DNA of 64,000 nt from Ostreococcus lucimarinus (GCA_000092065.1 CP000582.1); one strand, 5' to 3'. Positions 10,744-39,258 are shown, counted from the stretch's first letter. Translations and numbers: made by a program. The notes: generated from the sequence alone by a model not told the origin.

Positions 10744-11172
10744 GGAATAGAATAATTAAGTTGTAAATTGTCCAGTTATCCTAAGAAGACGAGTTTTACT
10801 CGCGCGCGAAACGCTCAAACTCGTGCGCACCGCATCGCATCGCATCGCATCGCTATCGCGGCTTGACTGATACTGTACAACTAATCATTTGATATACAAA
10901 TTCGAACAATCCCGTGTGGTACGTACGGGCTAAAAAATCTCTGTTTCCGAGCGCGCCGCCTTAAAGGCTATGCAAAACGTGTCGCGCAAGACGGTTCGAA
11001 CGACCGTTAACGGCCAGGTACCAAGTTGATGTGTTGCAAGTTGGAACGTGAATAGATGTGCGGTTGATGTGAGGATATTCTTGAAGACGTACGATACGCC
11101 GCGCGAAGACGCGCGACGAGCGACAAATCGTCGCTCGACGCGTTTCCATCGCGAGGAGGACTACGTCTTACA

Positions 11173-11734
11173 TTAGTCCTCCATGTCCATCTCCATCCTT
11201 TTTCGTTCCTTCTTGCTCATCTTGACCTGTCCGCCGGTGCGTTCGAACTCTTCTCTTTCGAGGCGAGCGGCGACCTTGGCCTCCTTCGCCGCTCTGCGTT
11301 CCGCCTTCGCGCGCTGCTTCGCGCGTTCGTGTTCGCCCATGATCTCGAGCGCGCTCTTCTGGCGACTGGCCTCGTTCAACTTTTTCGTCTGGGCTTCGCC
11401 CAAGATACCCTTACCGAACGATTTAATCGTCCCGTTCTGTTCGGCGCGAATCGAGAATCATCCGAGGTCAGTCTCGCCACGTCAGCATCCGCGTCAGCAT
11501 CCGCGAATCGCCGACCCGCGCCATCGATCCCGCGCCCGCGCGCGCGCGCCCCCCCGCCCCTCCGTCCCGCGAACGATTCACAAAAAACCCACGCCGCTCA
11601 AAACGTACCGCGATGTGCTGCTGCACCTCGTACGCGTTCACCTGCTGCGACCGGTTCATGTACGCGAACACCGCCATTTGTTCATCCGCGGTGAGCCCGT
11701 GTTGATCGAGCGAGGTTTGCACGTTGACCGACAT
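11173..11734 (-). CDS. Small charged/coiled-coil protein of unknown function, two exons (exon 1 11609..11734; intron 11437..11608; exon 2 11173..11436)
   Basis: ATG at 11734. Exon 1 ends ...HIA followed by GTACGT. The intron contains GAGACTGAC 28 nt upstream of a CAG acceptor. Exon 2 joins in phase 0 to the 11173..11403 ORF and ends in a Lys/Glu/Arg-rich tail (KKERKRMEMDMED). Confidence 0.4.
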
Positions 11735-12108
11735 TTGACCGTCGAGGTTGGTTGTGTGTGAGCGAGTGTCGTGTAACGCTTAAATTTCAAGCGTCGCCGT
11801 GTCGTCGCGCGGGGCGTCGACGGGTCGTTCTGAGTTCAGTAATGCCGTCGCCGCGCGCGCGCGCGCGACCCGCGTCGAGGTGCCGAGGCGGCCCGGGGTG
11901 GCGATCGCGTTTTTATTGGTCGTCGTGCTTCCATCTAGGCGAATGGGTCGCTCGAATACGGATCGAGCGGCCTCGGACGAGACGACGGGTCCCGACTCGA
12001 CGCGATCGGGGGTCGGGGGTCGAAACGATCCGTGTGTCGCGTGCGTCTCGCACCGCGCGCGTCCGCATCGTTCGCGTCGTCCGTCGCCGCGGCGACGCGC
12101 GCCGCTCG

Positions 12109-23340: not shown

Positions 23341-26300
23341 TCATGCGGCCGCACGGCGCGATCGTCGCGGCGGACTTGTCGGTGGCGTCGCAACCTTGGG
23401 TAAATCGGGCGCAACGTTTTCTTGCTCATCGGAAGTCTTGCTGTCTGTTCGGACAATTTCCGATGGAATTTCCTCGTCGTTGTCCACTGTTTGAGGTTTT
23501 TCCTCGCTAGGTTCTTCTTCCTCTTTCTTAATTTCTGCAACAACAGTCTCTTCTTTACCCTCAGCTCGCGCCGACACGTTGTATGCTGCCGCTCGTTCGA
23601 CGTGCGCGTCGTTAAGCCTAGTCTCGAAAGCCTCCACAAACTGTTTTGCTTCGGGCTTTGCCGCGCGCTTCTGCTTGTGACACATCGCGATGAAGCACGC
23701 ATGTACTTCGTGATCATACAAGGCAGCATCGTACTGCTTCCAACTCTCTGTGAACTTCTTGAAAGCACGCTCGCTGAGGTTGAGTTGCGAGATGCAAAAG
23801 GCGATATCGCGCGCAGGTTTCGGTGTTTCAGCCAAACACGCCTCGGCAAATCTCGCGCACATCTTTTCGCATATTGCTTCAGCCTGACGCTCCTTGTCAA
23901 TGAACCCGACGAGACGAGTCATGATGCGCTTGAAAGCGTCCGGAGAAATATCTTCGTCGGAGGACAGCCTAGACAATAAATCTGTCAGCAAGTTGTAAAT
24001 CGGATTACCGTGCTTCTGAGAGAGTTCGTGGAAGAACAGCTTTGCCACGCCGGCGACTCGGGGGTCGACATCCTCCAGACATCGAGCCATCTCGCTGATA
24101 TGACCCTTGACTTTCATCATATCGTTCAAAACCAAATGGGACAACATCGTGATGGCGTGTTGTCGAACGCTTGCGTCGGTGTCGTGCAACGAGTTGCCCC
24201 ATTCCTTGATACCGTACAAGTGTTCAGTCCACGGCTCGACGGCGTTGGGGAATCGGAACGCCAGATCACCAAGGGCGACAAGAAGCGCGGAGCGAGTACC
24301 CTTGTCGGACTCGACTTTGAGACGAGTAAAGATCAATTTGAGATGATCCTCGCAGAATTTGGCGTCCAAAACCATGAAGCGCGTAAGCGCGGCGAGCGCA
24401 GCGCCGCGCAAAAGTTCGGGCCCTTGCACCACTGCTGGGTGAGAGCAAAGCTGCACGACAAATGGAGCATATATGGCGACGAGCCCACGCGCAGCGCCCT
24501 TTTTCGTGGCGAGAAGCTCAGCTTCGGCCTTTTCTCGAGTGGCGTCTAACAAGAGATCCTCTGCGACGGCACCTTCGCCCATGGCGGCGGCGAGATCGTT
24601 GTCACCCGAGTCACCTTTTTCCTTTGCCTCGGCCGCCTCGCGGTCACGAACGACTCTGGCTTGACGAACGGAGCGCGCGAGCTTTTCGATGTGTACCAAG
24701 TGTTTCAGTGAAACCTCGCCGAGAACGAACAAGAACCGTGCCAACACAGCAGTAGGTATTTTGTCCATAGAGTTGCCATTGAACGTAGCAACGGCGAACG
24801 CCTTGATGACTTCCGAAGACGCATGCTCAGGGTCGGGATGGAGCGAATAGAGAGCCGAAATCGCTTGTTCGGCGGATGGAAACCACGCGCGACCCGCGAG
24901 CGGAGCGGCCGGATGAAGCACCTTGGCAAGCTCAGCGAATACCGGGTGGCTGAGCTCCAAAGGCTCGCCATCCTTTCCTCGGACCACCGTGAGCGCGCAG
25001 CACGCGGCTCGGCACAGTGTTGGAGATTTCTTTTCGCCCGATAGCGCAGCCTCGATCGCGGCGCACACAGTTCCGAGATGTCCCCGCACGATTTCAGGAC
25101 TCGTACGAGCGCACATCGTGAGTACATTAAGCGCCGCGGCCTTGCGGTTATTCGAACATTCATCACTCGATACATTTGACCACAAAGTCTTCATCACCGC
25201 GCCAGTCGGCGGCAATCGACCCGATAAGACGAGCGCCTTCAGGACATCTTCAAGCGACGCTAGTTCACCTAGTGCGGCTGTGGCAGCGAGTTCGCTCAAG
25301 CCCGCTGCTGCGAGCATCGGGCTCTCGGCGTTCGAAAGATACAACACATCCACAGCTTCGACAACGGCGTCTTTGATGGCTTGATCGCGAGAGAAGATGA
25401 GGCCGAGCAATCGTCGAACACCTTCGGTAGAACCATCGACATTAAATTGACGCATGCGAACGAGTAAGCCAATAGCTTCGGTGACGTCGGAGGCGACAGA
25501 GGAAGTGAGGAGATTGCTCAAGTTTGCCACCGTGCCAGAGAGTTGCACCGTGAACCCGAGGGCGGTTTTCAGCGCCGCAACCATGGTGCGAACTGCTTCG
25601 AGACCGCCATTGAGATGGATTGCGGCGTTCGCATCGCCTTCTTGTTGTTTCGGAGGTTCCTGCGATCCGTCCTCGGTGTTCGATTCTTTGCCTTCGGCGC
25701 TCTCCTCGGGCGTTTCTTCTTCGGGCGGAGTCATCGACGCGAGCTTGGCTTCGTAATCCTTCAACGATTCAGCAAACGTCGCGCTCGGAAGTTGCGGAGC
25801 GAAAGGGTTGAACCCCAAAAGCGATGCAAGTAGACCCATAGCCGCCTTGCGCACGAGTGCGCCCTTGTCGTGCAGTCGCCCGATTGCGAGGTCCGTGACG
25901 ACGAGCCAGTGCGACAACGGAATCGCCTTGGCTTCAGCCATGGTCGCCCACGTGTTCAATACTCGTGCTCGCGTAAACGCACTCGTATCGTGTACACGCT
26001 CGACGAGTAGATCTAAGAACCCTTGTTTCGTGCGTAGAAGTGGCGCAGTGCTGTTGTCGTGATGATCGCTCACCGCAACGACATCCTTCTGCGAAATCAA
26101 GAGGTGTCCCAATACAGAGACTATCGCAGAACGCAAAGAGTACGCTTCGCCATCCAAATGAGGCATGAGCACGGACATGTTCGTCATCGTCGTCTTTGGC
26201 ATACGTTCTGCGATTTCACTGAGGAAAGCACCGACACAACGCACGCCGACAGCGTCGCTGGCTTGCTGCAGCTTGTAATCATGAGGATCGACGCGCCCAA

Positions 26301-26982
26301 CCTCGCGAATAAGTGCCGCCGCGAGGTGCGCGTTTTCAAATCTATCAGCCGCCGCGCTCGCGAGTTCCGCGATTGGGCCGGACAAATGCTCGCACTTGTT
26401 CAGTAGATGAATCAACGCTGTGGTTACTTGCTCGAGCTGGCCCCACTTGAGCGCACAAGAGCCCATCATTTCAAACGCCGCGCGCTTCGTCACTTTGCTC
26501 TTCAACGCCGCGGGATTTTCGAGCAACATCGACCCGAGACGCACAAACAACCTCAAGAAGTCCTCCTCGGGCTGCTTCGGACGGAATACCTGCCACAAAT
26601 CGATGTCCAAGGCACCAGCCATGACGTGCACGATGCGCTCACGCTGTTCGTCCCACGCCCACTCCGCCAACTTTGCCTTATTCGTCTGCTTCTTCTTCCC
26701 CTTGGCGCCAGGCGCGGGCTTTTGCGCGCACGCCATCGCGGCGCACTCCTTCGATTCTTTTTCGCACACCTCGCACACGTGGAATATAAACGTTGCGTAC
26801 GCCTTCAACGCCTGTCGATACCCAAACATCGTCTCCGCGTGCGCCTCATCCGCGCTCGCGCCGCTCACCACCGCCGCCGTCACGCTCGCGCTCAACACGC
26901 TCAAATTCGAACACAACGCATCGATCAAGCGCATGCGTTCGATCGGCGTCAACTCGATGAAATCTCTGCGTTCGCGCACCAT
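23341..26982 (-). CDS. NCAPD2: Condensin complex subunit 1 (Cnd1 / NCAPD2-like HEAT-repeat protein)
   Basis: ATG at 26982. The 1213-aa protein is HEAT/ARM-like throughout, with the conserved Cnd1 C-terminal region (LGDLAFRFPNAVEPWTEHLY...VRQHAITMLSHLVLNDMMKVKG) followed by an acidic/Lys tail. Confidence 0.85.
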   Translation of the reverse strand: MVRERRDFIELTPIERMRLIDALCSNLSVLSASVTAAVVSGASADEAHAETMFGYRQALKAYATFIFHVCEVCEKESKECAAMACAQKPAPGAKGKKKQTNKAKLAEWAWDEQRERIVHVMAGALDIDLWQVFRPKQPEEDFLRLFVRLGSMLLENPAALKSKVTKRAAFEMMGSCALKWGQLEQVTTALIHLLNKCEHLSGPIAELASAAADRFENAHLAAALIREVGRVDPHDYKLQQASDAVGVRCVGAFLSEIAERMPKTTMTNMSVLMPHLDGEAYSLRSAIVSVLGHLLISQKDVVAVSDHHDNSTAPLLRTKQGFLDLLVERVHDTSAFTRARVLNTWATMAEAKAIPLSHWLVVTDLAIGRLHDKGALVRKAAMGLLASLLGFNPFAPQLPSATFAESLKDYEAKLASMTPPEEETPEESAEGKESNTEDGSQEPPKQQEGDANAAIHLNGGLEAVRTMVAALKTALGFTVQLSGTVANLSNLLTSSVASDVTEAIGLLVRMRQFNVDGSTEGVRRLLGLIFSRDQAIKDAVVEAVDVLYLSNAESPMLAAAGLSELAATAALGELASLEDVLKALVLSGRLPPTGAVMKTLWSNVSSDECSNNRKAAALNVLTMCARTSPEIVRGHLGTVCAAIEAALSGEKKSPTLCRAACCALTVVRGKDGEPLELSHPVFAELAKVLHPAAPLAGRAWFPSAEQAISALYSLHPDPEHASSEVIKAFAVATFNGNSMDKIPTAVLARFLFVLGEVSLKHLVHIEKLARSVRQARVVRDREAAEAKEKGDSGDNDLAAAMGEGAVAEDLLLDATREKAEAELLATKKGAARGLVAIYAPFVVQLCSHPAVVQGPELLRGAALAALTRFMVLDAKFCEDHLKLIFTRLKVESDKGTRSALLVALGDLAFRFPNAVEPWTEHLYGIKEWGNSLHDTDASVRQHAITMLSHLVLNDMMKVKGHISEMARCLEDVDPRVAGVAKLFFHELSQKHGNPIYNLLTDLLSRLSSDEDISPDAFKRIMTRLVGFIDKERQAEAICEKMCARFAEACLAETPKPARDIAFCISQLNLSERAFKKFTESWKQYDAALYDHEVHACFIAMCHKQKRAAKPEAKQFVEAFETRLNDAHVERAAAYNVSARAEGKEETVVAEIKKEEEEPSEEKPQTVDNDEEIPSEIVRTDSKTSDEQENVAPDLPKVATPPTSPPRRSRRAAA

Positions 26983-27507: not shown

Positions 27508-30500
27508 CTATGCGACGTCGCTCGTGTCGGATGGCGCGACGTCGACTTGGACGTCGACGCCTTCGTCGGGCGCTTCGATGACGGGCGCTTCGATGACGGG
27601 CGCTTGGACGTCGACGTCGACGACGTCGACGGCTTCGACGAGGCTCGTATCGATTTCTTGACGGTTGCCGCCGCCGAAAAGACCACCAAAGAAGCCTGGT
27701 TTCTTCGTACGCTTTTTCGCTTGCTTTTGTGCGCGCTTTTCGAGTGTTTTTGACTTCTTTTCTGCCAAAATCTTGAGATTGTCGTGCGCGGCTTGCGCGC
27801 ACTCCTGACAGCGAACGCTGAAGCCACTTTCGGCGATGCTCTGAGACGCGCGGACGCACCAGTCAACGAAATCGGTCACTTCGCTCTGTAAATGTTGTTC
27901 AAGTGACGTGTCTTCTTCGTCCGATCGAATAGACTTGATTATACGCTCCGTCATCGTCTCGAGAACCTGCATGAACTTGACGTCGCCAAAGTTTTTAAAT
28001 AGGGGCTTCCATTCCACGGCGCGCAGCACCACGCAGTTTTGTAAGTAGGTGTCATGATTTTTCAGAGCATCGATGGTTTCGTCGAGCAAAAGCCTGTTCG
28101 CTTCGACATTATCACCAACGAGAGACTCGCTTTCTGGATGTCTGAAGAGCTCGATGCATGCGTCCCGCCAAGTTTCGTGCTTGACGATGATGTCGTCGAA
28201 GGCGTTCAAGACGACGAGCACCCTGCCGACGTCGTCAACAGAAACTACCTGCGCGAGTTGAATAGTGAAGGTATCGGCCTGGGTGCAGAGAATTGATGCG
28301 TTCAGTTCATCCGTGCCGAAGTGTTCGGGAAGCGTTCTTTGCTCATCTTCGAGAGCCACTGCCTCTTGACCTAAAGAGATGAGTTCCGTTACTCGCTCAC
28401 CGCGAGCGTACTCCAACATATCGTCATCCAACTGCTTAGCAGCGCGATCGAATGCATGAATTCGCAGCAGTAAGTGTAAAGCGCCGGCGGTTGACTCGTT
28501 TGCATTCGTCCGGCGTACAAACTCTACCTCGGCGGCTTCAATCAAAGTCGTCAGTAAGTTGGCGGCGCTTTCAATTTGTTGTTCAACGTCGCGGTCCGCC
28601 GGCACAGGTTGAATGGTACACACGTTGACGATGTGCGCCACCTCATTCGCGATTTCCAGAAGTGCACGAATTTGTGCGGGATCTTCGTCACCCTTGTCCT
28701 TCATGTGTTGAACTCTCCGTAGCATGGCCTCACGTGTAGCCTCGAGCCGCGCGCGAACTTTGCGTTTGGATACGGCGACTTGAGCTCTCAACGCGTAGAT
28801 GCTAACGATCTTTCCAGCCTTCGCGAGATCGATAAATTCTCGATGGACAGAATTTGCGCTCTCCTCAGGTTCTTTCTCAAAATTCAGCTTTTTCGTGACC
28901 TTCTTGCTCACTGAAAGCCTTTCTGATACAATCATACCAACGCGCACCATCAACAGAGCGCATATGATGCCCATCAGAAATGCTGTGGACAGGCCCGTCA
29001 ACGAGCTGTCTGTCGCGAATATCATACCGAGGAGGGGAATGAGACCTTGCAAAAAACCAGCGGTCGACTCAGTCTTATTGAGCGCATTGTGGATTTTCTT
29101 TTGAGCAAAACCGAGGGTGATAATACGCCATGGCTGGCAAATCAAAACGAACAAAGCGGATATCCAGTGCACCGCCACGAGGCCGTAAATACTGATGCCC
29201 TCGGCGATGTTTGGAGAACCCGCGAGAATCACTCCAAGCTTTTGAATCATTTCAATTGCGAGGTAATTCAATGCCAGACGATCGAGCCAAGCCATTTTCG
29301 AGGCGCGCTCTCGAGCTTTCTGGGTCAACGTTCTTTTCAATGGTTTCTTTTTCATCGAAAGTTCCGGAAGGCGTTCGCGACGACTCTTCTGATTCTTTAG
29401 ACTCTTCGCTTTCTCGAGGATTCGACCGAAGAAGGATGGTTTTTCCGTCGCTTGACCGCTTTGTTCCTCGAATAACTCATCGTCGACTATGGCGGCGAGC
29501 TCTTCGGTTTCCGAGTCGAGCTTGAAAGTCGACGTTCGTTCAAATGTGGGCTTACGAAGACTGACACTTTGGGACAAAGATTTATCAATTTCGACTCTCG
29601 CCAAAGTTGAAGTTCGTTGAAGCGTCGGTTTTCGCTCAGCCCCGCTTGGGGTAGGCGAGTGTGAATCGCCGTCTTGCGCAAGAGTCGTAGACCGCGATAG
29701 CACTGGTGTGCGTATAGTCGCTTGTCGCGAGACGTTCCTCACAATCTCCGAGATTTCCAACTTATCAGATTCCGTCAACTCAGTGCGTCTGTAGATATCG
29801 TATAGGGCACCCCAGCTATCGAGGGTTCGCGCATCGTCCAATTTACCATCGATTCGAATACGACGAACTTTGTTGATAACGAAAAGTGGTAGCCCCACAC
29901 CGATGGCGAGTATGATCCCGCATGCCGCAGATGTCGCGAGAATATGCTCTGGTGAATCGCAATCGACGTCAACGTCGTAGACCAACACTCTGGCTTCGCT
30001 CGAGCCGTACTTTATGCAATCAAACGCCTGGAGACACAGGCGGACAATCGGTAAATACAGAATTGTCAAACAGAGCGAGCCAAATACTCGAAGCGTCGCC
30101 CTTAGCTTGTATTGCCGCTGCAATTCTTTCACCACTCGATCACCGCTCTCAGACGCGTATGTTCGACGCTCCTTCGAGCTAAAGATGCCAGGCCGAGCGA
30201 TCCAGAACATCGTCTTTTCTCCGTCGTGAGCGCTGCGAATTGCCAAAACAGTGTGTTCGTAACAGTATGCAGCGTAGCGATCGCGAAGATAAAACACCAC
30301 AGCTAAGCCGCATGGAATTATGAGCGCACCCGACCAAAAGAGAGTGGGCCATTTGATGTTCGCACCTGCGCACTCCGGAGCCAAAAACTCGATGTTGAAG
30401 TTGAAAGCCTTCAGCCAATCCGCAAAGTTCAGAACCGGGAGAGGCCATTTAATTTCCACACTAAAGGAGATGGAAAAGAATTGCAAAGTCTCAACCACTT

Positions 30501-33500
30501 TTTTGATCATGTTGGTAGAAACGGCACCCAAAGCTTCCGCAGCTTTGAAGCCCACGAGGCCTGCGACAACGACGAAGAAGGCGGCGACGCCGGCGCTCGC
30601 CGCCGAGTTTTCTGGGCATTCTAAACATTGCGTGCCGCTCTTGTAATAGCCTTCGAGACAAGCTCGGCAAAGCAGACCCGTTGATCCTTCACGGCAGCCA
30701 GCATTTCCTTCAACGCAGCGTATGGGAAAAGGACATTCTCCCTGTGGCACACAAAAATCATCGATAGAAGCGTATACACCCTCGTTGTTTGTGCAGTCTT
30801 GGATGTAAGCGTTCGGAGGACCGTCGGTGTTGGGCAGTTCGTCGAATCGCTTGAACATCAAGGGCCAATGCTCAACATCGGCGAACATTCCAGTGGAATT
30901 CTCATAAGAAACTGTAGAATTCCAAACGGTGATGTCGCTCTTGAAGGGTGTCACTTGCGCAAACATGTTGCGCATGTCTGTCACCTGCCTGACGTTCCAG
31001 CTGTTGATGGATAAATCCATTAGAGACGCTCCTTGAAACATTGAATTCATATCAACCACGGAAGACGTGTCCCAAGCCAGCGAAGAGACATTGTTATTGT
31101 TAAAATTCGTTGCGAGATTAAACATTCGCGCCATGCTCGTAACTGAACCTGTATTCCAATTACCGACGCCACCGTTGAATAAGGATGCTCCGAGAAACAT
31201 TTCTTCCATATCCTTGACGGCTAGAGTGTTCCAAGCACCCCAAAAGCGATCACCACTATCGATAATCGGGTTCAAAGCGGATGCAGAGGCGAACATTCTT
31301 TTCATTGACGTCACGGCTGCTGTGTTCCATCTGCCGACACCACTGTTCGCAGTGCCGGCGCCGTTGAACGCGACTGCGCCCTCAAACATGGACGCCATCG
31401 AGATCACTGAAGAAGTATCCCAATTATTGATGTCCTGGTCGAATGTAGTGGCACGGTATAGCATGTACTGCATATCGACGACATTACTTGTGTCCCACGA
31501 GTAGAGTGGTTGATTGAAAGCCGCATTATCAGCCATCATGTAGGACATGTTCACCACCGAGGACGTGTCCCAAGCACCGATGGCGCTGTTGAACAGAGCC
31601 GCCCCCTGTAACATGTTTGCCATGGTCGTGACAGAGCTTGTGTTCCAAACACCGATATCGCCGGCAAACGCGGTAGCGTTTGCGAAAACCTCCGACATAT
31701 CCTGCACCGTATTCGTGTTCCAACTCGTCAGATCACTGGTAAACGTCGTCGCACCTCGAAACATGCCTCGCATCCTCTGCAAATTCGTCGTACTCCACGA
31801 TGCAAGGACGGAGTTGAACGTTGACGCAAACGCAAACATATCAGTCATATCAACGACATTAGATGTGTCCCAGTCATCGATCGAACTTGTGAATGCAGTG
31901 GCGTTGTAGAACATCTCCTTCATCGACGTTGCAGCGCCCGTATTCCACGAACCAATCGGTTGGCTGAAGCTCGATGCCTGCGAAAACATTGCCTCAAAGC
32001 TTCCGACCGACGCAGTATTCCAGGACGATATGGGTTGATTGAACGTGGACGCGCCGCTGAACATTCCAGCCATGTTCGTGACCGCGCGCGTATTCCACGT
32101 CGATAGAGCACCGTTGAACAGATTTGCACTCGCAAACATGTTCTGCATATTCTTCACGTTGACCACGTCGAAGCCGCTCAAGTCACTCGGTGCGAACGCC
32201 TTCGCCGACGAAAACATAGAACTCATGTCCGTCACCGAACTCGTCACCCAACCGCCAGCCGAACCGAGTCCCGGACGGTTGAAATCAAACGCGCTCTCGA
32301 ACATAGAGCTCATATCTAGCACAGACGCCGTGTTCCAGCCCGAGATGTCCTCGTTAAACTTGAGCGCCAATTTGAAAGTGCCGGCCATATCGACGACGTT
32401 CCTCGTGTTCCAAGCACCAATACCGGCGCCTGGGAAGTCGGATGCCATCTCAAACATGCTCGAAATATTTCCCACATTCACCATGTTCCAAGTGCCGACG
32501 TTCTGTGTAAAAAAGTTGGCTTTATAAAACATTTGACTCATGTCCGTCACCAACGCCGTACTCCAGCTTCCGATCGCCTTGTTGAATCGGCTGGCGCCGG
32601 CGAACATTCCAACCATTTTCGTCACCGCAGCCGTATTCCACGCCGAGATGTCCGCATTGAACGATTGCGCATCCTTGAACAATTCCGACATATCGGTGAT
32701 GAGCGCGGTGTTCCACTGCGTAATATCGTCGTACACGGCAGGACCACAGTCCACCGGCGCACTGTCGCAATTGCACGCCCCGGAAGAGGAAGCGGCCAAG
32801 CAACTGCTCACGGCGGCTTTCAGCTGACTCAAGGACGTGAACGGACCTGGGCTAACCCAAACAGAAGGCGGACCGTCGCGCGATGCGGAGAAATCAGGCT
32901 GGCGGTACATCGTCAACCAAGCCGTGGCGGAACTGAACATGTTTGTCACGCCGGCGCCGGCGGGGACGGACCAGTTACGAATGCCGTCTTGCAAGAAAGC
33001 CGTCGCCCCTTGAAACATGCGCGTCATCGAAACCGCAGACGTCACGACCCACGAAGAAATATCTTGATTGAATGAAGGGTTACCCTCAAACATGTATTCA
33101 AAATCTTCAACTTTGGACACGTCCCACCCGCCAATCGATCCGTTGAAGGAAGTGCCCTGAAACATGTACGCCGTGCTGCGAACCTCACCAGTGTTCCAGA
33201 TGGTCAGGTTCAGTAAAGGCGCGTTGGTGCCCTGAAACATCGCATGCATGCCCGTGACTTTACTCGTGTCCCACGTGTTGAGGGGCTGATTGAAAGAGGT
33301 CGCGCTTTCAAACATGTACTCCATGTCCGTCACTTCCCCGGTGTCCCACTTGGTGATGTCCTGATTGAAACTCGTCGCCTGTTTAAACATCGAATTCATG
33401 TTCGTCACTCTCGCCGTGTTCCACGATTGTATATTTTGATTGAAGGCGGTCGCGCCTTGTAACATATTTCTCATGTTCGTGACCTTCTCCGTATTCCATG

Positions 33501-34755
33501 CCGTGATATCCGAATTGAAACTCCGCGCGCCATAAAAGGCTGATTCAAGGTTCGTCACTCGCCGCGTGTTCCATGCTCCGATGTTCTGATTGAACGCGGT
33601 AGCTTCTTCAAAAATAGCCTGCATGTCGAGCACGCTTTCCGTGTTCCAGCTTCCGATGTTCTGATTGAACGCAGACGCTCTATAAAACATGTACCTCATT
33701 TTCTGCACGTTGTTCGTGTTCCAAGAAGAGATGTCCTGATTGAACGCCGCGGCTTCTTGAAACATAAAGTTCATCCTCGTCACAAGAGCCGTATTCCACG
33801 CCGAGATGTCCGCGTTAAACGATGTCTTACCTCGAAAAACCTCCGATAAGTCCGTAAGTTGTTCAACGCGCCATAGACGTATCGGCGCGCCCTCGCCGCT
33901 TCCGCAGTCTACGCTCTGCAATTTGCAGTTGCACGCCCCAGAAGGCGAAGCGGCGAGACAGTTGTCCACCGCGGTTTTCAAGGCCGTTTTACTCGTAAAC
34001 GGCGACGGTCCCGTCCAGGCAGAGGCTGGTCCGGCCTTCAACGTCGTCCAATCGTTTCTGCGATACTTCTCAAGCCACTTGGTCGCGCCCTCGAACATAT
34101 CGTTGACATTATTGGTCCCACCGTGCGGCCAACCTGTGATATCTTGATCAAAATTCACGGCGTTTTTGAACATATCAGTGAACCAATTGATCGCGTTTGT
34201 GTTCCAACTAGAGATATCTTCATTGAACGACCTGGCGTTGTCAAACATACCCTCGCAATCAGTGACTTTGGTGACGTTCCAAGCGCCGATGCCCGCGCCG
34301 GTGAACGAACTCGCGCCTCTGAACATGTCCCACATTGTCACTTGCACATTTGACGCTGTGTTTATGGTCCATCCGCCCAGGTTGGCGTTGAATTGGTTTG
34401 TTCTGTACGGAATATTACCGAAACTTTGATCAGTGGCGTATTCAGAATCCGCGAAGACACCCTTGAAACTGACGACGTTCGACACGTCCCACGAGCTTAT
34501 AGGGGGAATGGCATAAGTAACGCCACCTATAGTCACTGTTCCACACGAAGCGCCGGTCGCATCGTGGGCTAAGCAGTGCTTTATCGTCGAGCACATATTG
34601 CATCCCGAGCTTGAATCCCGATTATGTTGCCCTGTGAACGCGCCCGTCGTACAGATGGTGGCGTTGTTGGGCGCGCACAGGACCTGCGCGTCGACGCCGA
34701 TCCATCGCGACCCGATCGCGACGACGACCATCGCCTCCACCATCATCCGCGCCAT
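27508..34755 (-). CDS. Giant multi-pass membrane protein: signal peptide, about 45 tandem DUF285 (Mycoplasma/BspA-type LRR) repeats in two super-repeats, Cys-rich module, multi-TM region, long charged cytoplasmic tail
   Basis: The track ORF 27508..35229 starts with a GTG in Arg-rich sequence. ATG 34755 is followed by a signal-peptide-like MARMMVEAMVVVAIGSRWIGVDAQ. The repeat consensus is roughly W(N/D)TSxVTxMxxMFxxAxxFNQxIxxW. Two spacer modules (W-L/T-x-YR...GPxSxW..PFTS..LKxAVxxCLAASxSGACNC...VDCG) separate the repeat blocks. A Cys-rich segment CxxxC...CxxCxxGYY precedes the first TM (AAFFVVVAGLVGF), and further hydrophobic helices follow. Confidence 0.8.
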   Translation of the reverse strand: MARMMVEAMVVVAIGSRWIGVDAQVLCAPNNATICTTGAFTGQHNRDSSSGCNMCSTIKHCLAHDATGASCGTVTIGGVTYAIPPISSWDVSNVVSFKGVFADSEYATDQSFGNIPYRTNQFNANLGGWTINTASNVQVTMWDMFRGASSFTGAGIGAWNVTKVTDCEGMFDNARSFNEDISSWNTNAINWFTDMFKNAVNFDQDITGWPHGGTNNVNDMFEGATKWLEKYRRNDWTTLKAGPASAWTGPSPFTSKTALKTAVDNCLAASPSGACNCKLQSVDCGSGEGAPIRLWRVEQLTDLSEVFRGKTSFNADISAWNTALVTRMNFMFQEAAAFNQDISSWNTNNVQKMRYMFYRASAFNQNIGSWNTESVLDMQAIFEEATAFNQNIGAWNTRRVTNLESAFYGARSFNSDITAWNTEKVTNMRNMLQGATAFNQNIQSWNTARVTNMNSMFKQATSFNQDITKWDTGEVTDMEYMFESATSFNQPLNTWDTSKVTGMHAMFQGTNAPLLNLTIWNTGEVRSTAYMFQGTSFNGSIGGWDVSKVEDFEYMFEGNPSFNQDISSWVVTSAVSMTRMFQGATAFLQDGIRNWSVPAGAGVTNMFSSATAWLTMYRQPDFSASRDGPPSVWVSPGPFTSLSQLKAAVSSCLAASSSGACNCDSAPVDCGPAVYDDITQWNTALITDMSELFKDAQSFNADISAWNTAAVTKMVGMFAGASRFNKAIGSWSTALVTDMSQMFYKANFFTQNVGTWNMVNVGNISSMFEMASDFPGAGIGAWNTRNVVDMAGTFKLALKFNEDISGWNTASVLDMSSMFESAFDFNRPGLGSAGGWVTSSVTDMSSMFSSAKAFAPSDLSGFDVVNVKNMQNMFASANLFNGALSTWNTRAVTNMAGMFSGASTFNQPISSWNTASVGSFEAMFSQASSFSQPIGSWNTGAATSMKEMFYNATAFTSSIDDWDTSNVVDMTDMFAFASTFNSVLASWSTTNLQRMRGMFRGATTFTSDLTSWNTNTVQDMSEVFANATAFAGDIGVWNTSSVTTMANMLQGAALFNSAIGAWDTSSVVNMSYMMADNAAFNQPLYSWDTSNVVDMQYMLYRATTFDQDINNWDTSSVISMASMFEGAVAFNGAGTANSGVGRWNTAAVTSMKRMFASASALNPIIDSGDRFWGAWNTLAVKDMEEMFLGASLFNGGVGNWNTGSVTSMARMFNLATNFNNNNVSSLAWDTSSVVDMNSMFQGASLMDLSINSWNVRQVTDMRNMFAQVTPFKSDITVWNSTVSYENSTGMFADVEHWPLMFKRFDELPNTDGPPNAYIQDCTNNEGVYASIDDFCVPQGECPFPIRCVEGNAGCREGSTGLLCRACLEGYYKSGTQCLECPENSAASAGVAAFFVVVAGLVGFKAAEALGAVSTNMIKKVVETLQFFSISFSVEIKWPLPVLNFADWLKAFNFNIEFLAPECAGANIKWPTLFWSGALIIPCGLAVVFYLRDRYAAYCYEHTVLAIRSAHDGEKTMFWIARPGIFSSKERRTYASESGDRVVKELQRQYKLRATLRVFGSLCLTILYLPIVRLCLQAFDCIKYGSSEARVLVYDVDVDCDSPEHILATSAACGIILAIGVGLPLFVINKVRRIRIDGKLDDARTLDSWGALYDIYRRTELTESDKLEISEIVRNVSRQATIRTPVLSRSTTLAQDGDSHSPTPSGAERKPTLQRTSTLARVEIDKSLSQSVSLRKPTFERTSTFKLDSETEELAAIVDDELFEEQSGQATEKPSFFGRILEKAKSLKNQKSRRERLPELSMKKKPLKRTLTQKARERASKMAWLDRLALNYLAIEMIQKLGVILAGSPNIAEGISIYGLVAVHWISALFVLICQPWRIITLGFAQKKIHNALNKTESTAGFLQGLIPLLGMIFATDSSLTGLSTAFLMGIICALLMVRVGMIVSERLSVSKKVTKKLNFEKEPEESANSVHREFIDLAKAGKIVSIYALRAQVAVSKRKVRARLEATREAMLRRVQHMKDKGDEDPAQIRALLEIANEVAHIVNVCTIQPVPADRDVEQQIESAANLLTTLIEAAEVEFVRRTNANESTAGALHLLLRIHAFDRAAKQLDDDMLEYARGERVTELISLGQEAVALEDEQRTLPEHFGTDELNASILCTQADTFTIQLAQVVSVDDVGRVLVVLNAFDDIIVKHETWRDACIELFRHPESESLVGDNVEANRLLLDETIDALKNHDTYLQNCVVLRAVEWKPLFKNFGDVKFMQVLETMTERIIKSIRSDEEDTSLEQHLQSEVTDFVDWCVRASQSIAESGFSVRCQECAQAAHDNLKILAEKKSKTLEKRAQKQAKKRTKKPGFFGGLFGGGNRQEIDTSLVEAVDVVDVDVQAPVIEAPVIEAPDEGVDVQVDVAPSDTSDVA
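31240..34590 (-). repeat. Coding tandem repeat array (about 78-81 bp units, roughly 45 copies) encoding the DUF285 repeats of the giant membrane protein
   Basis: A periodic WNTxxV..M..MF..A..FNQ.I..W peptide pattern is visible across about 1100 aa of the 27508..34755 CDS. A duplicated roughly 60-aa spacer module splits the array into two super-repeats. Confidence 0.7.
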
Positions 34756-34796
34756 CGTCCGCGCGCGCGCGCGCCGTCCGATCCCGCCCCGCGCCG

Positions 34797-34798
<2 letters not shown>

Positions 34799-34831
<33 letters not shown>
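34799..34831. repeat. (GTC)11 microsatellite in the 5' region of the giant membrane protein gene
   Basis: A perfect trinucleotide run upstream of the putative ATG 34755 (minus strand). It lies within Arg-rich low-complexity sequence. Confidence 0.8.
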
Positions 34832-34833
<2 letters not shown>

Positions 34834-35400
34834 ATTCGCGCGGCCCGCGGCGACGTTCGAGTTCGACCCCGCGTCCGCGCGCCTCGCCGCGCCTCGCCGC
34901 GATCGCGCGTCGCGCGTCGCGCGCGCCTCGCCGCGCGCGCCTCGCCGCGTCCGCGTCCGCGTCCGCATCGTCGTCGGCGTCGCGCGCGCGCGTTTGACGC
35001 GCGCGGTCGTTCGTCCCCGTCGCCGACGAACGGTCGATTCTCTGCCAGAGAATCTCTGGATTTGATTTTTCATGGGATCGCGTGCGCGCGGATTACGTGA
35101 TCGACCGCGGTCGCGCGGTGTAAACAGGTGTTCGGACATTCGGTCACCCCGCGGACTGTTTGCCCAGTGCGATGCGCGTCGCGCGGCGTCGCGTCGCCCC
35201 GCGCGCGGCGCGCGGCGCGCGCGCGGCACGCGTCGACGCGACGCGCGCGCGCGATCGAGCGCGCGCGCGCACCGGCGACGGACGACGCGGCGACGAGGGC
35301 GCGCGAAGGCGCGAACGCGCGCGAGACGGCGAATTCACGGGCGCGGAATTCAGTTTGAATCGATCGCGCGCGCGACGGACGACGGACGACGGACGACGGC

Positions 35401-36890: not shown

Positions 36891-38165
36891 CTAGTGCTTT
36901 CTACTCATCCAAGCCGTGTACTTGTGCTCGACGACATTTACGAGAGGTTCGAGCTTTACGAGCGCGTTCGACTCCGTCGGTCCGACTACCTCAACAACGC
37001 CACAACGTCCGAAATGCTGCGCCAGACTCAAGCCGCTGAGACAATAACACGTGTGATAGTGATCTCGACCCGTTCCAGGCTTGTCGCGCAACCCGCCCGC
37101 ACCCTGTTCGGATTGGCAACAATCCAGAATCCACCCTTGCAGGGCGCCGTTCGCAAACGGAGCCGGCGCAGGGATCGACGACGGAAACTCTGCGGGCGTA
37201 AACAAAGTCGCCGCACACGCACCCATGGGACGAGCATTGAATGCGAAATCTCTTGGATCGATTTGAGAGCCTTCTGGTGTCACCACGTGTCGGCTTTGGT
37301 GAATAAACTGTTCGAGAAGGTGCGAGTTCGCGAGGGCCAACAGCGGAAAGCAACCACCTTGCCAGAACGAATAGCACCCATCAACGAGTTTGTTCGTTCG
37401 ACCATTAAACCCGCCCTCGATCTCTCCTTGCCTGTTCGCCAACCAGCGCTCGAGACTCGCTAGATCTAACGCCCCAATGTCGCCCGCCAACGCGCACGCC
37501 GCGAGCCCGCAAAACGTGTAACCGCCGTGCGCCTCCCCACGCGGCTCGCCACCGATACCACCCTCGTAACTCTGACAGCTCGCCACGAATGAGCTCACAC
37601 CACGCGTCAACTCTTCATCGAGGACTCCGCACAAGTGCGCGGTCGCCAACGCGGCGTAGCATCCTCGCGTATCGCTCTCGCCGCCTTCGTGCACGCGAAA
37701 GCCACCCGTGCGCGAATCCTTCAGAGACAACAAAAAAGCCCTCAAATCCGCCCCTACGATCGCCTCGCGCGCCTCATCGGTGCCGATCGTCACCAACGCG
37801 CACGTCGCCGCGTACGTCGTCGCGATGTGCGGCATCTGTCCCGGACCACCGCCGAAGCCAAAGCACGCGCGCTCGCCGCGTCGACTTCGGCAGCGCCTCA
37901 AAAACCGCACGACGTCCGACGCCAGCGCTTCATCGCGCTCGCGTAGGTCCACACCGAGGAGTGCGAGTCCGTGCACGCACCAGTACACGACCCACGCCCG
38001 CGAGGCGTCGAGCGAGGTGAAAGCGGTCGGGAGCGTTCTCAGGCCACCGAGCAAATACTCCACGTGTGCGTCCCTGGCGAGCGCGGACGCGCGATCGGGG
38101 CGCTCGTAGATGTCGCGCGCGATGTTTTCGAGGTTCAACACCGCCTCCGCGGATGCGGAGGTCAT
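36891..38165 (-). CDS. Protein prenyltransferase beta subunit (farnesyltransferase / GGTase-I beta, alpha-alpha toroid repeats)
   Basis: ATG at 38165. Prenyltransferase beta repeats are present: GGFGGGPGQMPHIATTYAA, GGFRVHEGGESDTRGCYAA, GGIGGEPRGEAHGGYTFCG, GGFNGRTNKLVDGCYSFWQG. The N-terminus (RAWVVYWCVHGLALLG) is typical of FTase-beta. Confidence 0.8.
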   Translation of the reverse strand: MTSASAEAVLNLENIARDIYERPDRASALARDAHVEYLLGGLRTLPTAFTSLDASRAWVVYWCVHGLALLGVDLRERDEALASDVVRFLRRCRSRRGERACFGFGGGPGQMPHIATTYAATCALVTIGTDEAREAIVGADLRAFLLSLKDSRTGGFRVHEGGESDTRGCYAALATAHLCGVLDEELTRGVSSFVASCQSYEGGIGGEPRGEAHGGYTFCGLAACALAGDIGALDLASLERWLANRQGEIEGGFNGRTNKLVDGCYSFWQGGCFPLLALANSHLLEQFIHQSRHVVTPEGSQIDPRDFAFNARPMGACAATLFTPAEFPSSIPAPAPFANGALQGWILDCCQSEQGAGGLRDKPGTGRDHYHTCYCLSGLSLAQHFGRCGVVEVVGPTESNALVKLEPLVNVVEHKYTAWMSRKH

Positions 38166-38310: not shown

Positions 38311-39258
38311 TCACAGTGGCTCAAGCAAGCGCTTCATCCACTCCACGCTCACGAACCGCACCATGTTGAGCGGTACCTGCCGAGCGGTGGTCGGGACGAG
38401 CCCCTTGTACACGGCGAACACGCCCTCGCGTCTGACCGTCTTCGCGATGCAATCTAACGTCCCAGAATACGGCATTTTACCGTGTTCGTCGGCTTTCATG
38501 CTCATCAAGCGCGACTTGGCGAGATCGATCGGGTTCGACGTCAGCGCGGCGACGACGCCGGCGCCAAACGACGCCCCGGTTTGCGCCAACAATCCATCGT
38601 TTAACGACGTGTGCTCGACGATGTAATGCTTGGCTTGATCGTACACCGCCATCTGACTCGCCGTGACGATCATCGCTCGATTCACCGTCGGCGCGCACCC
38701 TCGCCAGAGCGCTCCGACGCCTTCCTCTCTCGCCACTCGCATCAACGCGTCGGCGCCGTTGCGATAATTCCTTCGCAACTCCACCGGCAACCGTCCATCG
38801 GCCTGCATCCGCACCATGGCTAAGTCCGCTGGATTTCCAACCGCCGCGCCGATCGCGCCCGCGCCGATCCCACACATCGTCATCTTCCAAAACGGCAACT
38901 TTTCGTCGCCTTCGCTTCGCAGCGCCGCCTTGAGCGCGTCGTACGCCCCGAACTTGGTCCCTATGAACGACGCCTGTCGCATCAGCGACGCCGTGAGCCC
39001 TTTGTAAAGTCCGAGCGCACCTTCCACTCGCAGGACGTGCGCGAACGTGGACACCATCCCCGGCGCGCGCGTCGAGGCGCGCGAAGATGCGGCGGCCGCC
39101 GCTTTATCCACCTCGCCTCTGAGCTGCATGCGAACTTTGACGAGGTCTATCGGGTGCGTCACCGCGCCCGACGCCATGGCGCCCAAAGAGCCGCTCGCGA
39201 AGCCTTTCCACGCGGCGGGGCCGGAGGGCTGAGACAGTCCCGCGGCGTTTGTGCTCAT
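38311..39258 (-). CDS. Mitochondrial carrier family protein (dicarboxylate/2-oxoglutarate/UCP-like subfamily)
   Basis: ATG at 39258. It has three tandem carrier repeats with PIDLVKVRMQ, PADLAMVRMQ and NPIDLAKSRLM signature motifs and six predicted TM helices. Confidence 0.85.
   Translation of the reverse strand: MSTNAAGLSQPSGPAAWKGFASGSLGAMASGAVTHPIDLVKVRMQLRGEVDKAAAAASSRASTRAPGMVSTFAHVLRVEGALGLYKGLTASLMRQASFIGTKFGAYDALKAALRSEGDEKLPFWKMTMCGIGAGAIGAAVGNPADLAMVRMQADGRLPVELRRNYRNGADALMRVAREEGVGALWRGCAPTVNRAMIVTASQMAVYDQAKHYIVEHTSLNDGLLAQTGASFGAGVVAALTSNPIDLAKSRLMSMKADEHGKMPYSGTLDCIAKTVRREGVFAVYKGLVPTTARQVPLNMVRFVSVEWMKRLLEPL

Follow-up and report, generated by a model that had tools for sequence, protein, structure and literature searches.

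A giant Ostreococcus protein that joins capped DUF285 solenoids to a conserved membrane module, possibly related to the Flc/Pkd2 family

Introduction

What does the picoalga Ostreococcus lucimarinus encode in a stop-free 7.2-kb reading frame in which DUF285 repeats precede a cluster of hydrophobic helices, and what could the two parts do together? To our knowledge, Ostreococcus has neither a cell wall nor scales, and about 1300 residues predicted to be extracellular on such a wall-less cell would therefore make up a prominent part of the surface that viruses, bacteria and other cells encounter. The frame lies on the minus strand of the window, by which we mean the whole 64,000-nucleotide stretch of O. 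lucimarinus DNA that was analyzed (GCA_000092065.1 CP000582.1), and a sequence-only reading had taken its product for a eukaryotic receptor- or channel-like protein with a repeat-built ectodomain. Both the gene and its repeat class had been catalogued before, and the present results do not by themselves alter current understanding. Ten O. lucimarinus chromosomes, among them chromosomes 1 and 2 with one apiece, were described as carrying PARCEL ORFs in a study that already lists a polytopic topology class of PARCEL proteins and argues for horizontal transfer of PARCEL ORFs, those of Ostreococcus included (Roske et al. 2010, PMC2996958). Here, the protein is presented as a concrete candidate for the coupling of surface recognition to intracellular signaling in picoalgae: its membrane part appears to be a conserved, portable module common to many protists, not a simple anchor, and may be related to the Flc/Pkd2 family, itself poorly understood.

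A predicted single gene for the whole architecture

The reading frame at 27508-35229 (minus strand) is uninterrupted, and from the ATG at 34755 it yields 2415 aa with zero internal stops (ORF list and translation), in keeping with the giant (~2400 aa) multi-pass ORF described from the sequence alone. By exact-sequence look-up, the product equals the annotated XP_001416341.1 / ABO94634.1 / UniRef A4RTB0 of O. lucimarinus CCE9901, encoded on an 895,087-bp chromosome, with XP_001416341.1 bearing the database name 'Lipoprotein Q-related gene'. The protein appears to be encoded by one intronless eukaryotic gene of O. lucimarinus, as the earlier reading had also assumed: the full architecture recurs in the orthologues P0252 and P0254 (38-73% identity, region by region), and both P0005 and P0008, the latter an O. 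mediterraneus UniRef entry, join repeats and membrane module in a single protein. Gene order, with a condensin subunit, farnesyltransferase beta and a mitochondrial carrier, is kept on a Tara Oceans contig. Both the G+C content of the gene (0.52) and its GC3 (0.615) are below those of neighboring genes. The features of the locus are given below by window position, with residues counted in the product.

27508..34755, minus strand: complete single-exon CDS, 2415 codons plus stop (ORF list, translation, exact-sequence look-up)
34684..34755, minus strand: signal-peptide-like N-terminus, residues 1-24, MARMMVEAMVVVAIGSRWIGVDA followed by Q (read from translation)
34081..34683, minus strand: N-cap-like Cys motif and DUF285 block A, residues 25-225 (repeat parsing, Pfam DUF285)
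33874..34080, minus strand: spacer 1, residues 226-294 (motif at residue 259, AF2 model)
32896..33873, minus strand: DUF285 block B, residues 295-620, 13 repeats of 25 aa (repeat parsing, AF2)
32716..32895, minus strand: spacer 2, residues 621-680 (motif search, repeat parsing, AF2 model)
32485..33561, minus strand: segment doubled in environmental alleles, reference residues about 399-757 (spacer motifs, global alignments)
30856..32715, minus strand: DUF285 block C, residues 681-1300, 24 repeats (repeat parsing)
30610..30855, minus strand: Cys-rich stalk, residues 1301-1382, with GYYKSG, DUF7630-like (PF24633, invariant Cys columns)
29857..30609, minus strand: first membrane cluster, residues 1383-1633 (hydropathy, invariant columns, AF2 helices with pLDDT 70-90)
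29293..29856, minus strand: basic Ser/Thr-rich loop, residues 1634-1821 (model pLDDT, alignment gaps in the family profile A2)
28906..29292, minus strand: second membrane cluster, residues 1822-1950 (hydropathy, invariant columns, AF2)
27511..28905, minus strand: C-terminal tail, residues 1951-2415 (family conservation, orthologue identity)

Three capped DUF285 solenoids form the ectodomain

The signal-peptide-like start noted earlier is visible in the translation, where it is predicted by reading of the sequence, and a hydrophobic start is likewise present in orthologues P0252, P0254 and P0005. Repeat parsing gave 42 units in all, most spaced exactly 25 residues and with a DNA-level period of 75 nt, which revises the initial count of ~45 repeats of ~26 aa. 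In PARCEL proteins the repeats keep to one side of the membrane, as a rule the external one. Here the whole set starts after the signal-peptide-like N-terminus and ends before the first hydrophobic helix, and 13 N-x-S/T sequons, together with the Cys-rich stalk, point to an external orientation. Their proposed DUF285 identity was confirmed by HMM search, with PF03382 scoring 1096.7 bits (cutoff 25) across 12 stretches, the TIGR02167 PARCEL repeat 245.1 bits (cutoff 30) and NF045896 741 bits (cutoff 500).

The duplicated spacer reported in the sequence-only reading was found again (motif LKxAVxxCLAAS at residues 259 and 645), but two spacers delimit three blocks of about 5, 13 and 24 repeats, not the two super-repeats originally described. 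Block A contains about 5 irregular repeats with the cap ATKWLEKY at its end. Spacer 1 is made up of this cap end, a flexible linker, the N-cap helix 'TALKTAVDNCLAASPSGACNC' and a Cys loop, the helix occupying residues 42-55 of the AF2 model between low-confidence linkers; a cap-to-cap junction of the same type also occurs in P0207, P0182 and the Bathycoccus protein P0196. In spacer 2, a linker connects the C-cap 'ATAWLTMYRQ...DGPP' to the N-cap helix 'LSQLKAAVSSCLAASSSGACNC', and block C ends with a third cap copy, 'HWPLMFKRF...DGPP', just ahead of the Cys-rich stalk; the cap motif W-L-x-x-Y/F...DGPP has three occurrences. In the AF2 model of block B, block means were mostly above 90 pLDDT with one beta-bridge per 25 residues, and the best PDB matches were all LRR ectodomains (e.g., LGR5, SHOC2, Nogo receptor and TLRs). 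A PDB sequence search with the same block returned nothing meaningful. Overall, the ectodomain is a series of three LRR-like solenoids of DUF285/PARCEL type (5, 13 and 24 repeats), each closed by a conserved cap and connected by flexible cap-to-cap linkers, and what had been called spacers are the C-cap and N-cap elements that eukaryotic DUF285 domains usually have.

The best structural matches of the repeat block thus all belong with the receptors and channels that have LRR ectodomains (LGR4/5, Nogo receptor, TLRs, plant LRR receptor kinases and LRRC8), which share with the window protein the concept of a curved solenoid binding surface on a membrane protein. The matches were weak (E about 1e-4, TM-score 0.1-0.3, 6-13% identity); these proteins differ from the window protein in repeat family and in curvature and have unrelated membrane parts.

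Relatives of the repeats

The suggestion that the repeats are specifically Mycoplasma-like was not upheld, as the closest ectodomain relatives were mostly environmental proteins, many of them carrying PF18962, which we take to be the Bacteroidota type IX secretion sorting domain. Named relatives were few and included Flavobacterium, Dyadobacter, Ulvibacter, Bathycoccus and the diatom Attheya. The PF03382/TIGR02167 family corresponds to the 'BspA family leucine-rich repeat surface protein' of NCBI, of which Mycoplasma mycoides LppQ is an example. Like the window protein, DUF285/PARCEL proteins have tandem 25-residue W(N/D)TSxVTxMxxMFxxAxxFNQ(D/N)I repeats with very high HMM scores and a predicted LRR-like solenoid. 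In contrast to these proteins, the window array falls into three capped solenoids whose N-caps are of eukaryote type and contain Cys, and the same polypeptide continues into a Cys-rich stalk and then a large, conserved multi-pass module that has a predicted cytosolic tail. The lipobox for bacterial lipid modification follows the pattern [LVI][ASTVI][GAS]C. An LppQ-type lipobox is absent from the window protein, in which the first Cys (residue 27) stands in the context Q-V-L-C, which does not fit the pattern; the host is eukaryotic, and the protein is not a lipoprotein despite its database name. Dyad symmetry (palindromes) in the repeat-encoding DNA is the feature from which PARCEL takes its name (PMC2996958), and the 3.65 kb of repeat-coding DNA held only two 16-nt, 75%-complementary palindromes, too few to count as PARCEL-type symmetry.

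Stalk, membrane domain and tail

The Cys-rich GYY module expected behind the repeats is present (GYYKSG at residue 1369), and eight stalk cysteines are invariant across the family. Its assignment to GCC2_GCC3 holds in part: PF24633 (DUF7630) matched stalk residues 1340-1380 at 21.5-22.9 bits, below its cutoff of 27 (E = 9e-5 to 2.6e-4), whereas PF07699 (Ephrin_rec_like, GCC2_GCC3) was absent from the window protein at E ≤ 1 and was found only in distant relatives (13 of 42), where it adjoins DUF7630. PF24633 itself matched 22 of these 42 relatives, with a best E-value of 6.8e-13.

Hydropathy bore out the cluster of hydrophobic helices, with eight strong and one amphipathic conserved hydrophobic segments. 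The first membrane cluster contains four strongly hydrophobic helices and the amphipathic one, with the conserved motifs WP, APEC, YLP..R..Q, D..C..H and G.LYDIYRR, while the second contains four conserved hydrophobic helices (residues 1827-1950) with invariant QPWR, N..E and Q motifs. Between the clusters lies the loop of residues 1634-1821, which has 39 K+R and no Cys, holds repeated RKPT(L/F)xRTST motifs, differs in length between homologues and is predicted to be disordered (pLDDT <50 for much of its length, at model residues 346-356, 373-438 and 455-501). What had been read as a continuous tail of ~900 aa is instead this ~190-aa loop, then the conserved helices at 1827-1950 and a true tail of about 465 aa. 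The tail is conserved family-wide to about residue 2360, is 51-55% identical to orthologues and is helical at least at its start (the first ~20 residues, which is as far as the AF2 model covers it), and it had no Pfam match and no PDB sequence match. Its acidic end, correctly read in the translation before, carries (IEAPV)n, with a 15-nt tandem repeat at 27567-27605. Identity to orthologues reaches 64-73% in the membrane regions as compared to 43-48% in the repeat blocks, and many polar and charged residues in or beside the membrane helices are invariant; the ectodomain evolves faster than the membrane core.

In a nine-helix model the conserved loop cysteines are all outside and the K/R-rich loops inside. 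The membrane domain is thus most likely nine-helix, with an external N-terminus and an internal C-terminus, a count that is uncertain because AF2 merged the first helix and the amphipathic segment into one 47-residue helix. The disordered loop that splits the domain is lineage-specific and probably cytosolic, and the conserved helical tail is presumed to be cytosolic as well. The AF2 model of the membrane domain was of moderate quality (mean pLDDT 62.5, pTM 0.56, 9-sequence alignment) and matched nothing specific among PDB structures, so it lends no structural support to a pore. The fold comparison proposed earlier did not bring out a relative: since no solved TRP, polycystin or GPCR resembles the model, the domain is predicted not to adopt any of these canonical folds. 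For the GPCR families no fold match rose above background, and a PDB sequence search with the membrane profile gave nothing meaningful.

A portable module in many protists

Stalk, membrane domain and tail are 34-57% identical in picoalgal proteins whose ectodomains are of DUF285, Pro-rich or Receptor-L type. Beyond these, a stalk and membrane profile retrieved 3708 proteins at E ≤ 1e-3 and, among these, 717 at E ≤ 1e-10, from sources that include Mantamonas, Fabomonas, Thecamonas and Palpitomonas and with ectodomains that include TIG, Kelch, Filamin, FG-GAP and Ephrin_rec_like. Protist proteins with a PF07699/PF24633 stalk and a multi-pass C-terminus, exemplified by Thecamonas trahens XP_013761415.1 (AMSG_01914), share the stalk and first membrane cluster with the window protein (profile positions about 25-350); beyond the close picoalgal family, the best profile E-values are about 1e-40. 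They are likewise built on a constant stalk and membrane module while the ectodomain varies, being of the TIG, Kelch, Filamin, FG-GAP or PMP-repeat type instead of DUF285. The distant relative P0293 is without the long intracellular loop and has an SH3 domain at its end. The stalk/membrane module is therefore a portable, ancient eukaryotic unit with distant homologues in several unrelated protist groups, and the analysis delimits a family of sequences for whose membrane and tail regions Pfam has no matching model.

A possible link to the fungal Flc/Pkd2 family

Neither the native window protein nor its close homologues matched PF06011, the fungal Flc/Pkd2 'TRP' family, at E ≤ 1. When the loop was deleted from the window protein, PF06011 was the sole match (12.2 bits against a cutoff of 28.5, E = 0.078), in the same register as in relatives; the same deletion in four other homologues gave no PF06011 match. 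Two proteins connect the families: P0293 and P0296 were matched by the family profile A2 (E = 2.2e-25 and 2.1e-24, respectively) and barely passed the PF06011 cutoff of 28.5 (32.3 and 29.4 bits). PF06011 was found at E ≤ 1e-3 in 7 of 42 relatives, with matches centered on the G.LY..YR motif and the helices after it, and the regions matched by A2 and PF06011 overlap only in part, around this motif. A homologue search with the P0293 membrane region returned only two weak matches. As the window protein itself lies below the PF06011 cutoff, homology is transitive, via two near-cutoff relatives, and suggests that the membrane module is a remote relative of the Flc/Pkd2 family. The receptor- or channel-like character first proposed is to this extent favored by membership of a large eukaryotic family with a few PF06011-positive members, and weakened by the sub-cutoff score of the window protein and the lack of a fold match.

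Schizosaccharomyces pombe Pkd2p is built from a signal peptide, an extracellular ML-like/TRP_N domain, a central transmembrane domain and a cytoplasmic C-terminal tail (PMC6727746), and reconstituted S. pombe Pkd2 passes calcium on membrane stretch (PMC9727806). The domain order of Flc/Pkd2 proteins (S. pombe Pkd2p, Saccharomyces cerevisiae Flc1-3) parallels that of the window protein, from signal peptide through ectodomain and membrane domain to tail. Differences are that the window protein has no ML-like/TRP_N domain (Pfam search), that its ectodomain consists of DUF285 repeats and a DUF7630-like stalk, that the ~190-aa loop is inserted mid membrane domain, and that, as far as testable, the tails have no sequence relationship.

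Proposed role and alternative explanations

We infer that the protein most likely acts as a surface recognition or adhesion array coupled to an Flc/Pkd2-like transducer or channel. For the explanation as a whole, an outward solenoid array acting via its stalk on a conserved Flc/Pkd2-related membrane domain, the chances seem to us about even. The solenoid array would bind or tether an extracellular partner on the wall-less cell (another cell, a particle or a virus) and, by way of the rigid, disulfide-bonded stalk, would act on the conserved membrane domain, which would then transduce this event, plausibly as an ion or calcium flux, with the cytosolic loop and tail controlling transduction.

Alternatively, the DUF285 array alone could be functional, as a passive coat or adhesin, and the multi-pass region a robust anchor that neither signals nor transports. 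DUF285/BspA-type arrays are overwhelmingly found on simply anchored surface proteins (PMC2996958, and the relatives described here), the anchors being lipoproteins, single transmembrane helices or PF18962 domains, and the membrane model shows no pore or ligand-binding feature. This explanation is nevertheless rather unlikely, given that conservation within the protein is highest in the membrane helices, which are rich in invariant polar and charged residues, that one module is kept beneath unrelated ectodomains and across distant protists, and that the long conserved tail would be superfluous for anchoring. Similarly doubtful is a receptor that moves no ions, in which solenoid binding is relayed by a conformational change of the helices to effectors of loop and tail. 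The conserved tail, the basic Ser/Thr-rich loop with its repeated motifs, the terminal SH3 domain of P0293 and an ectodomain fold as in LRR receptors would all suit such a protein; however, HMM searches found no kinase, G-protein-coupling or other signaling domains in the window protein, there was no GPCR-like fold match above background, and the sole family link leads to PF06011, the family of S. pombe Pkd2, which is permeable to calcium after reconstitution (PMC9727806).

Two further explanations concern the origin of the gene. A recent graft of a bacterial BspA/PARCEL cassette onto a host membrane protein would agree with block B being up to 48-53% identical to environmental proteins, many with PF18962, and with the horizontal transfer argued for PARCEL ORFs (PMC2996958). 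Low G+C and GC3 were rejected as a sign of recent transfer, as GC3 is equally low in the eukaryote-specific membrane and tail parts and the neighboring condensin gene has 0.632. Similarity in repeat consensus is phylogenetically uninformative, the N-cap and C-cap motifs are common to Bathycoccus and other eukaryote-type proteins, and orthologues that retain both architecture and gene order are about 56% identical in the C-terminal module, so the fusion of repeats and membrane module is old and a recent acquisition very improbable. It is more improbable still that an adjacent secreted DUF285 gene and a membrane-protein gene were read as one ORF. Metagenomic gene callers did pick different starts (P0001, P0123 and P0129), and the orthologue in contig L001 is broken into two overlapping ORFs, but the frame is stop-free over 7.2 kb, its repeats pass straight into cap, stalk and first helix with no gap between, the complete architecture is retained in P0252 and P0254, and P0005 and P0008 hold both parts in one protein.

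Length polymorphism of the repeat region

A natural length variant of the ectodomain was found in the alleles P0117, P0129, P0130 and P0123, in which the segment of reference residues about 399-757 is present twice in tandem (+361 aa); P0117, P0129 and P0130 contain three spacer motifs as compared to two in the reference. In global alignments, these alleles, which come from short-read metagenome assemblies, were 99.2-99.7% identical to the reference with a single 361-residue insertion. The nucleotide repeat units (75 nt) are mutually only 60-87% identical, which indicates that they are old and diverged. Slippage of single units was rejected as the source of variation on these grounds and because the observed variant is a 1083-nt duplication. 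The earlier idea of a repeat-number hotspot is thus right with respect to natural length variation and wrong with respect to its unit, which is the 361-aa super-repeat and not the single repeat; the ectodomain appears to vary in wild populations through unequal recombination of the whole super-repeat.

A broader and decidedly improbable interpretation is that the window protein and its 3708 relatives are pan-eukaryotic, Flc/Pkd2-related, ectodomain-gated transducers whose length polymorphism in Ostreococcus is driven by an arms race. If so, interchangeable modules (DUF285, Receptor-L, TIG, Kelch and FG-GAP) would plug via a Cys-rich stalk onto a nine-helix core, the Ostreococcus version with 42-56 repeats would be a major exposed recognition surface toward, for example, mating partners, bacteria or prasinoviruses, and the oceanic length polymorphism would reflect that arms race. 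The super-repeat duplication also lends itself readily as a marker with which to follow surface-protein evolution in populations; at its junction, 'FNKAIGSW' of block C is joined to 'NTESVL' of block B repeat 4.

Gene model and neighbourhood

The window comes from the nuclear genome of Ostreococcus lucimarinus CCE9901, and five of eight tested ORF products, the target's included, exactly matched NCBI protein records of this strain. On its 895,087-bp chromosome, the target was translated from the ATG at 34755 into 2415 residues without a stop. The product is identical to XP_001416341.1 (ABO94634.1; UniRef A4RTB0), annotated as 'Lipoprotein Q-related gene', and the single-exon gene model was therefore already on record. 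The open frame and its neighbours are:

35229 to 27508, minus strand, open frame of the target ORF (from translation)
23341-26982, minus strand, condensin subunit CAP-D2
36891-38165, minus strand, farnesyltransferase beta
38311-39258, minus strand, mitochondrial carrier

The same order of CAP-D2, farnesyltransferase beta and mitochondrial carrier flanks an orthologue on a Tara Oceans contig.

The repeat ectodomain

Pfam DUF285 matched the target in 12 stretches (1096.7 bits, cutoff 25), and the NCBIfam PARCEL repeat model TIGR02167 scored 245 bits. Parsing on the conserved Trp gave 42 repeat units, spaced by exactly 25 residues in nearly all cases; the corresponding DNA period is 75 nt, with copies merely 60-87% identical. 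From N- to C-terminus, the units form three blocks:

Residues 89-225, block A, about 5 irregular repeats
Residues 295-620, block B, 13 repeats
Residues 681-1300, block C, 24 repeats

Each block is closed by the same cap (W-L-x-x-Y/F-[RK]...DGPP), and the motif PFTSxxxLKxAVxxCLAASxSGACNC...VDCG stands downstream of the first two caps and, in a weaker version, ahead of block A. The sequence-only reading had treated this as a duplicated spacer module. The motif is present, but the same cap-to-cap junction was also found in other eukaryote-type DUF285 proteins, one from Bathycoccus among them, and the spacer therefore corresponds to the C-cap and N-cap normally present in such domains.

Residues 215-700 were modeled with AlphaFold2 from a 40-sequence alignment (mean pLDDT 81.9). 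Most of block B exceeded a pLDDT of 90, a beta-bridge recurred every 25 residues, and the cap helices were bordered by low-confidence linkers. The best PDB matches were all leucine-rich-repeat (LRR) ectodomains (LGR5, SHOC2, Nogo receptor, TLRs), at weak scores (E about 1e-4, low TM-score), and a PDB sequence search with the repeat block returned no related solved structure. From the beta-bridges, the linkers and the LRR-only matches, the ectodomain is predicted to be three LRR-like solenoids on flexible joints.

Stalk, membrane helices and tail

Directly behind the third cap lies a Cys-rich stalk (residues 1301-1382) with eight Cys that do not vary among homologues and a match to DUF7630 that stays below threshold. 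Hydropathy of the target and the family alignment identified a first cluster of conserved hydrophobic segments (1379-1412, 1467-1495, 1552-1581, 1601-1633), followed by a basic, Ser/Thr-rich, length-variable loop of 190 residues that is predicted to be disordered, and four further segments behind it (1827-1848, 1852-1876, 1894-1917, 1916-1950). The cytoplasmic tail of about 900 residues proposed from sequence alone thus contains four more helices, and the actual tail is about 465 residues long. Its conservation across the family reaches about residue 2360, and its end is acidic.

Eight helices would place the tail outside. When a conserved amphipathic helix at 1412-1433, which AlphaFold drew as one long helix with the first, is counted in, the total is nine; this puts all three conserved loop Cys on the outer side and the loops rich in K/R (11, 39, 3 and 6 K+R) on the inner side. 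On this Cys and K/R placement, we infer nine helices with the tail inside.

Two further features were seen in these regions. Loop residues 1690-1740 (about nt 29536-29688) carry a near-duplicate basic motif, 'ERKPTLQRTSTL ... LRKPTFERTSTF', partly kept in the orthologue P0001 as 'ERKPTFKID'; its likeness to basophilic kinase target sites would suggest regulation by phosphorylation. Short tandem repeats also underlie the acidic C-terminal end (window 27567-27641): a 15-nt unit (x 2.6) specifies (IEAPV)n and a 9-nt unit (x 3.3) specifies (VD)n. The acidic or Pro-rich endings of the orthologues differ from this one, and the C-terminal tip therefore evolves quickly.

A portable membrane module

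Residues 1290-2415 retrieved homologues at 34-56% identity with DUF285 (P0001, P0002, P0005 and P0008 from O. mediterraneus), Pro-rich (P0003, P0004, P0006, P0007) or Receptor-L (P0010) ectodomains on the same membrane module. Pfam searches of the target and close homologues matched no family over the membrane region or tail. A family profile of stalk and membrane region, run against 1.84 billion representatives, matched 3708 proteins at E<=1e-3, of which 717 reached E<=1e-10, the distant matches covering mainly the stalk and first membrane cluster. Among 42 sampled distant relatives, 22 carried DUF7630, 13 Ephrin_rec_like and seven TIG, with Kelch, Filamin, FG-GAP or PMP repeats in others. 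Named sources include Mantamonas, Fabomonas, Thecamonas and Palpitomonas, and from this spread the module is judged to be old and widespread in eukaryotes.

Two full-length orthologues share the complete architecture: P0252 has three blocks in 2370 aa, and P0254 has two in 2313 aa. Identity to these is 64-73% in the membrane clusters and 51-55% in the tail, compared with 43-48% in the repeat blocks, which argues that the helices are more than an anchor.

Ectodomains differ widely among the close homologues P0003, P0004, P0006, P0007, P0009 and P0010. In one type, poly-Pro stretches surround a domain of about 100 aa with a terminal RRR..LL motif, and a CGNGV...C-rich region follows; a Pfam search of this Pro-flanked domain gave no match. 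P0010 carries Receptor-L repeats in its place.

Relation to PF06011 and known folds

PF06011 ('TRP') was matched at E<=1e-3 in seven of the 42 distant relatives, two of them above the gathering score of 28.5 bits (P0293, 32.3 bits; P0296, 29.4 bits). In both, the match begins near a G.LY..YR motif behind the fifth helix and runs across the next helices; it is at this very point that members of the Ostreococcus clade carry the 190-residue loop as an insertion. After in silico deletion of the loop, PF06011 was the sole Pfam match of the target, in the same register (E=0.078, 12.2 bits), and loop-deleted constructs of four homologues gave no PF06011 match. The link of the target to this family is thus transitive and suggestive, not established. 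Schizosaccharomyces pombe Pkd2p is a member of PF06011. It is described as starting with a signal peptide, followed by an extracellular domain, a transmembrane domain and a coiled-coil tail in the cytoplasm (PMC6727746). Membrane stretch induced calcium permeability in reconstituted Pkd2p, for which no experimental structure had been determined as of 2022 (PMC9727806).

The AlphaFold model of the membrane region was moderate (pLDDT 62.5, helices 70-90). Foldseek against the PDB returned nothing specific (E>1 for all matches) and a PDB sequence-profile search no match; on this model, the region has neither the canonical six-helix TRP/polycystin fold nor a GPCR fold.

Natural length variation

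Clustered at 90% identity, the target protein falls into a group of 270 members. P0127 and P0125 show the reference arrangement, and P0117, P0129 and P0130 are 99.2-99.7% identical to it plus one extra 361-residue stretch with a third spacer motif; in P0123, truncated at the N-terminus, two spacer motifs are likewise 361 residues apart. In reference numbering, the added stretch covers residues about 399-757, with the third repeat of block C joined to the fourth of block B, a junction that an out-of-register unequal crossover between these blocks would produce. The best-conserved 52-nt stretch between them (32614-32665 vs 33772-33823) is 87% identical. The few differences between the two copies of the segment argue against an assembly artefact, although these alleles come from short-read assemblies.

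Composition and origin

G+C (0.52) and GC3 (0.615) are lower in the target than in most of the genes around it, whose GC3 is 0.63-0.85, and the composition profile dips to 0.50-0.53 at 28-34 kb. A recent transfer as the source of this dip was rejected because values are equally low in the membrane and tail parts, which are specific to eukaryotes, and GC3 is 0.632 in the adjacent condensin gene; the dip more probably reflects low expression or codon bias than a foreign source. Many environmental DUF285 proteins share 40-53% identity with block B, and a good number of them carry PF18962, a domain typical of Bacteroidota; Bathycoccus proteins are about as close. Neither the GC/GC3 nor the block B similarity comparisons gave evidence of recent horizontal transfer, and PARCEL-type DNA palindromes were absent from the repeat-coding DNA.

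Proposed mechanism and prior knowledge

PARCEL repeats were defined by Roske et al. 2010, who reported PARCEL ORFs on ten O. lucimarinus chromosomes, 1 and 2 among them, and whose topology classes included a polytopic one (PMC2996958); an algal giant virus is also rich in DUF285 proteins (PMC10720644). New here are the three-solenoid anatomy, the recognition of a conserved, widely distributed stalk-membrane-tail module, the tentative PF06011 link and the super-repeat polymorphism. As an observation, the sequence-only reading was borne out by the ORF and the DUF285/PARCEL scores, with spacers and tail re-read; its interpretation was supported in part.

We hold the architecture described here to be very probably correct. 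The extracellular array may serve as a recognition or adhesion surface that a rigid stalk would couple to the membrane domain, with the conserved Flc/Pkd2-like domain as putative transducer; this is the most likely mechanism overall, to which we give an even chance. A channel function specifically appears rather unlikely.

Additional observations on gene models

Upstream of the target ATG, the frame stays open for 474 nt (window 34756-35300) and encodes Arg/Thr-rich low-complexity sequence, with (CGT)11.7 at 34798-34832 (a poly-Thr run) and GC-rich tandem repeats of 12-44 nt at 34869-35297. Metagenomic gene callers drew the starts of P0129 and P0251 into this region, which is probably 5' UTR or promoter, not coding. 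On the Tara Oceans contig (L001, 6368-13400), the orthologue is broken into ORFs 6368-7921 and 7647-13400, which overlap, lie in different frames and both contain DUF285; its intact 2370-aa counterpart (P0252) is known elsewhere, and the split suggests a frameshift or assembly error in the contig's repeat region. Three longest-ORF products were present in the protein collection, not under O. lucimarinus records:

1542-3269, minus strand, Ser/Thr kinase
38311-39258, minus strand, mitochondrial carrier
53834-55144, minus strand, acetyltransferase

In the annotation, these genes probably have different starts or small introns; the O. lucimarinus record for the kinase is a 601-aa model vs the 575-aa ORF.
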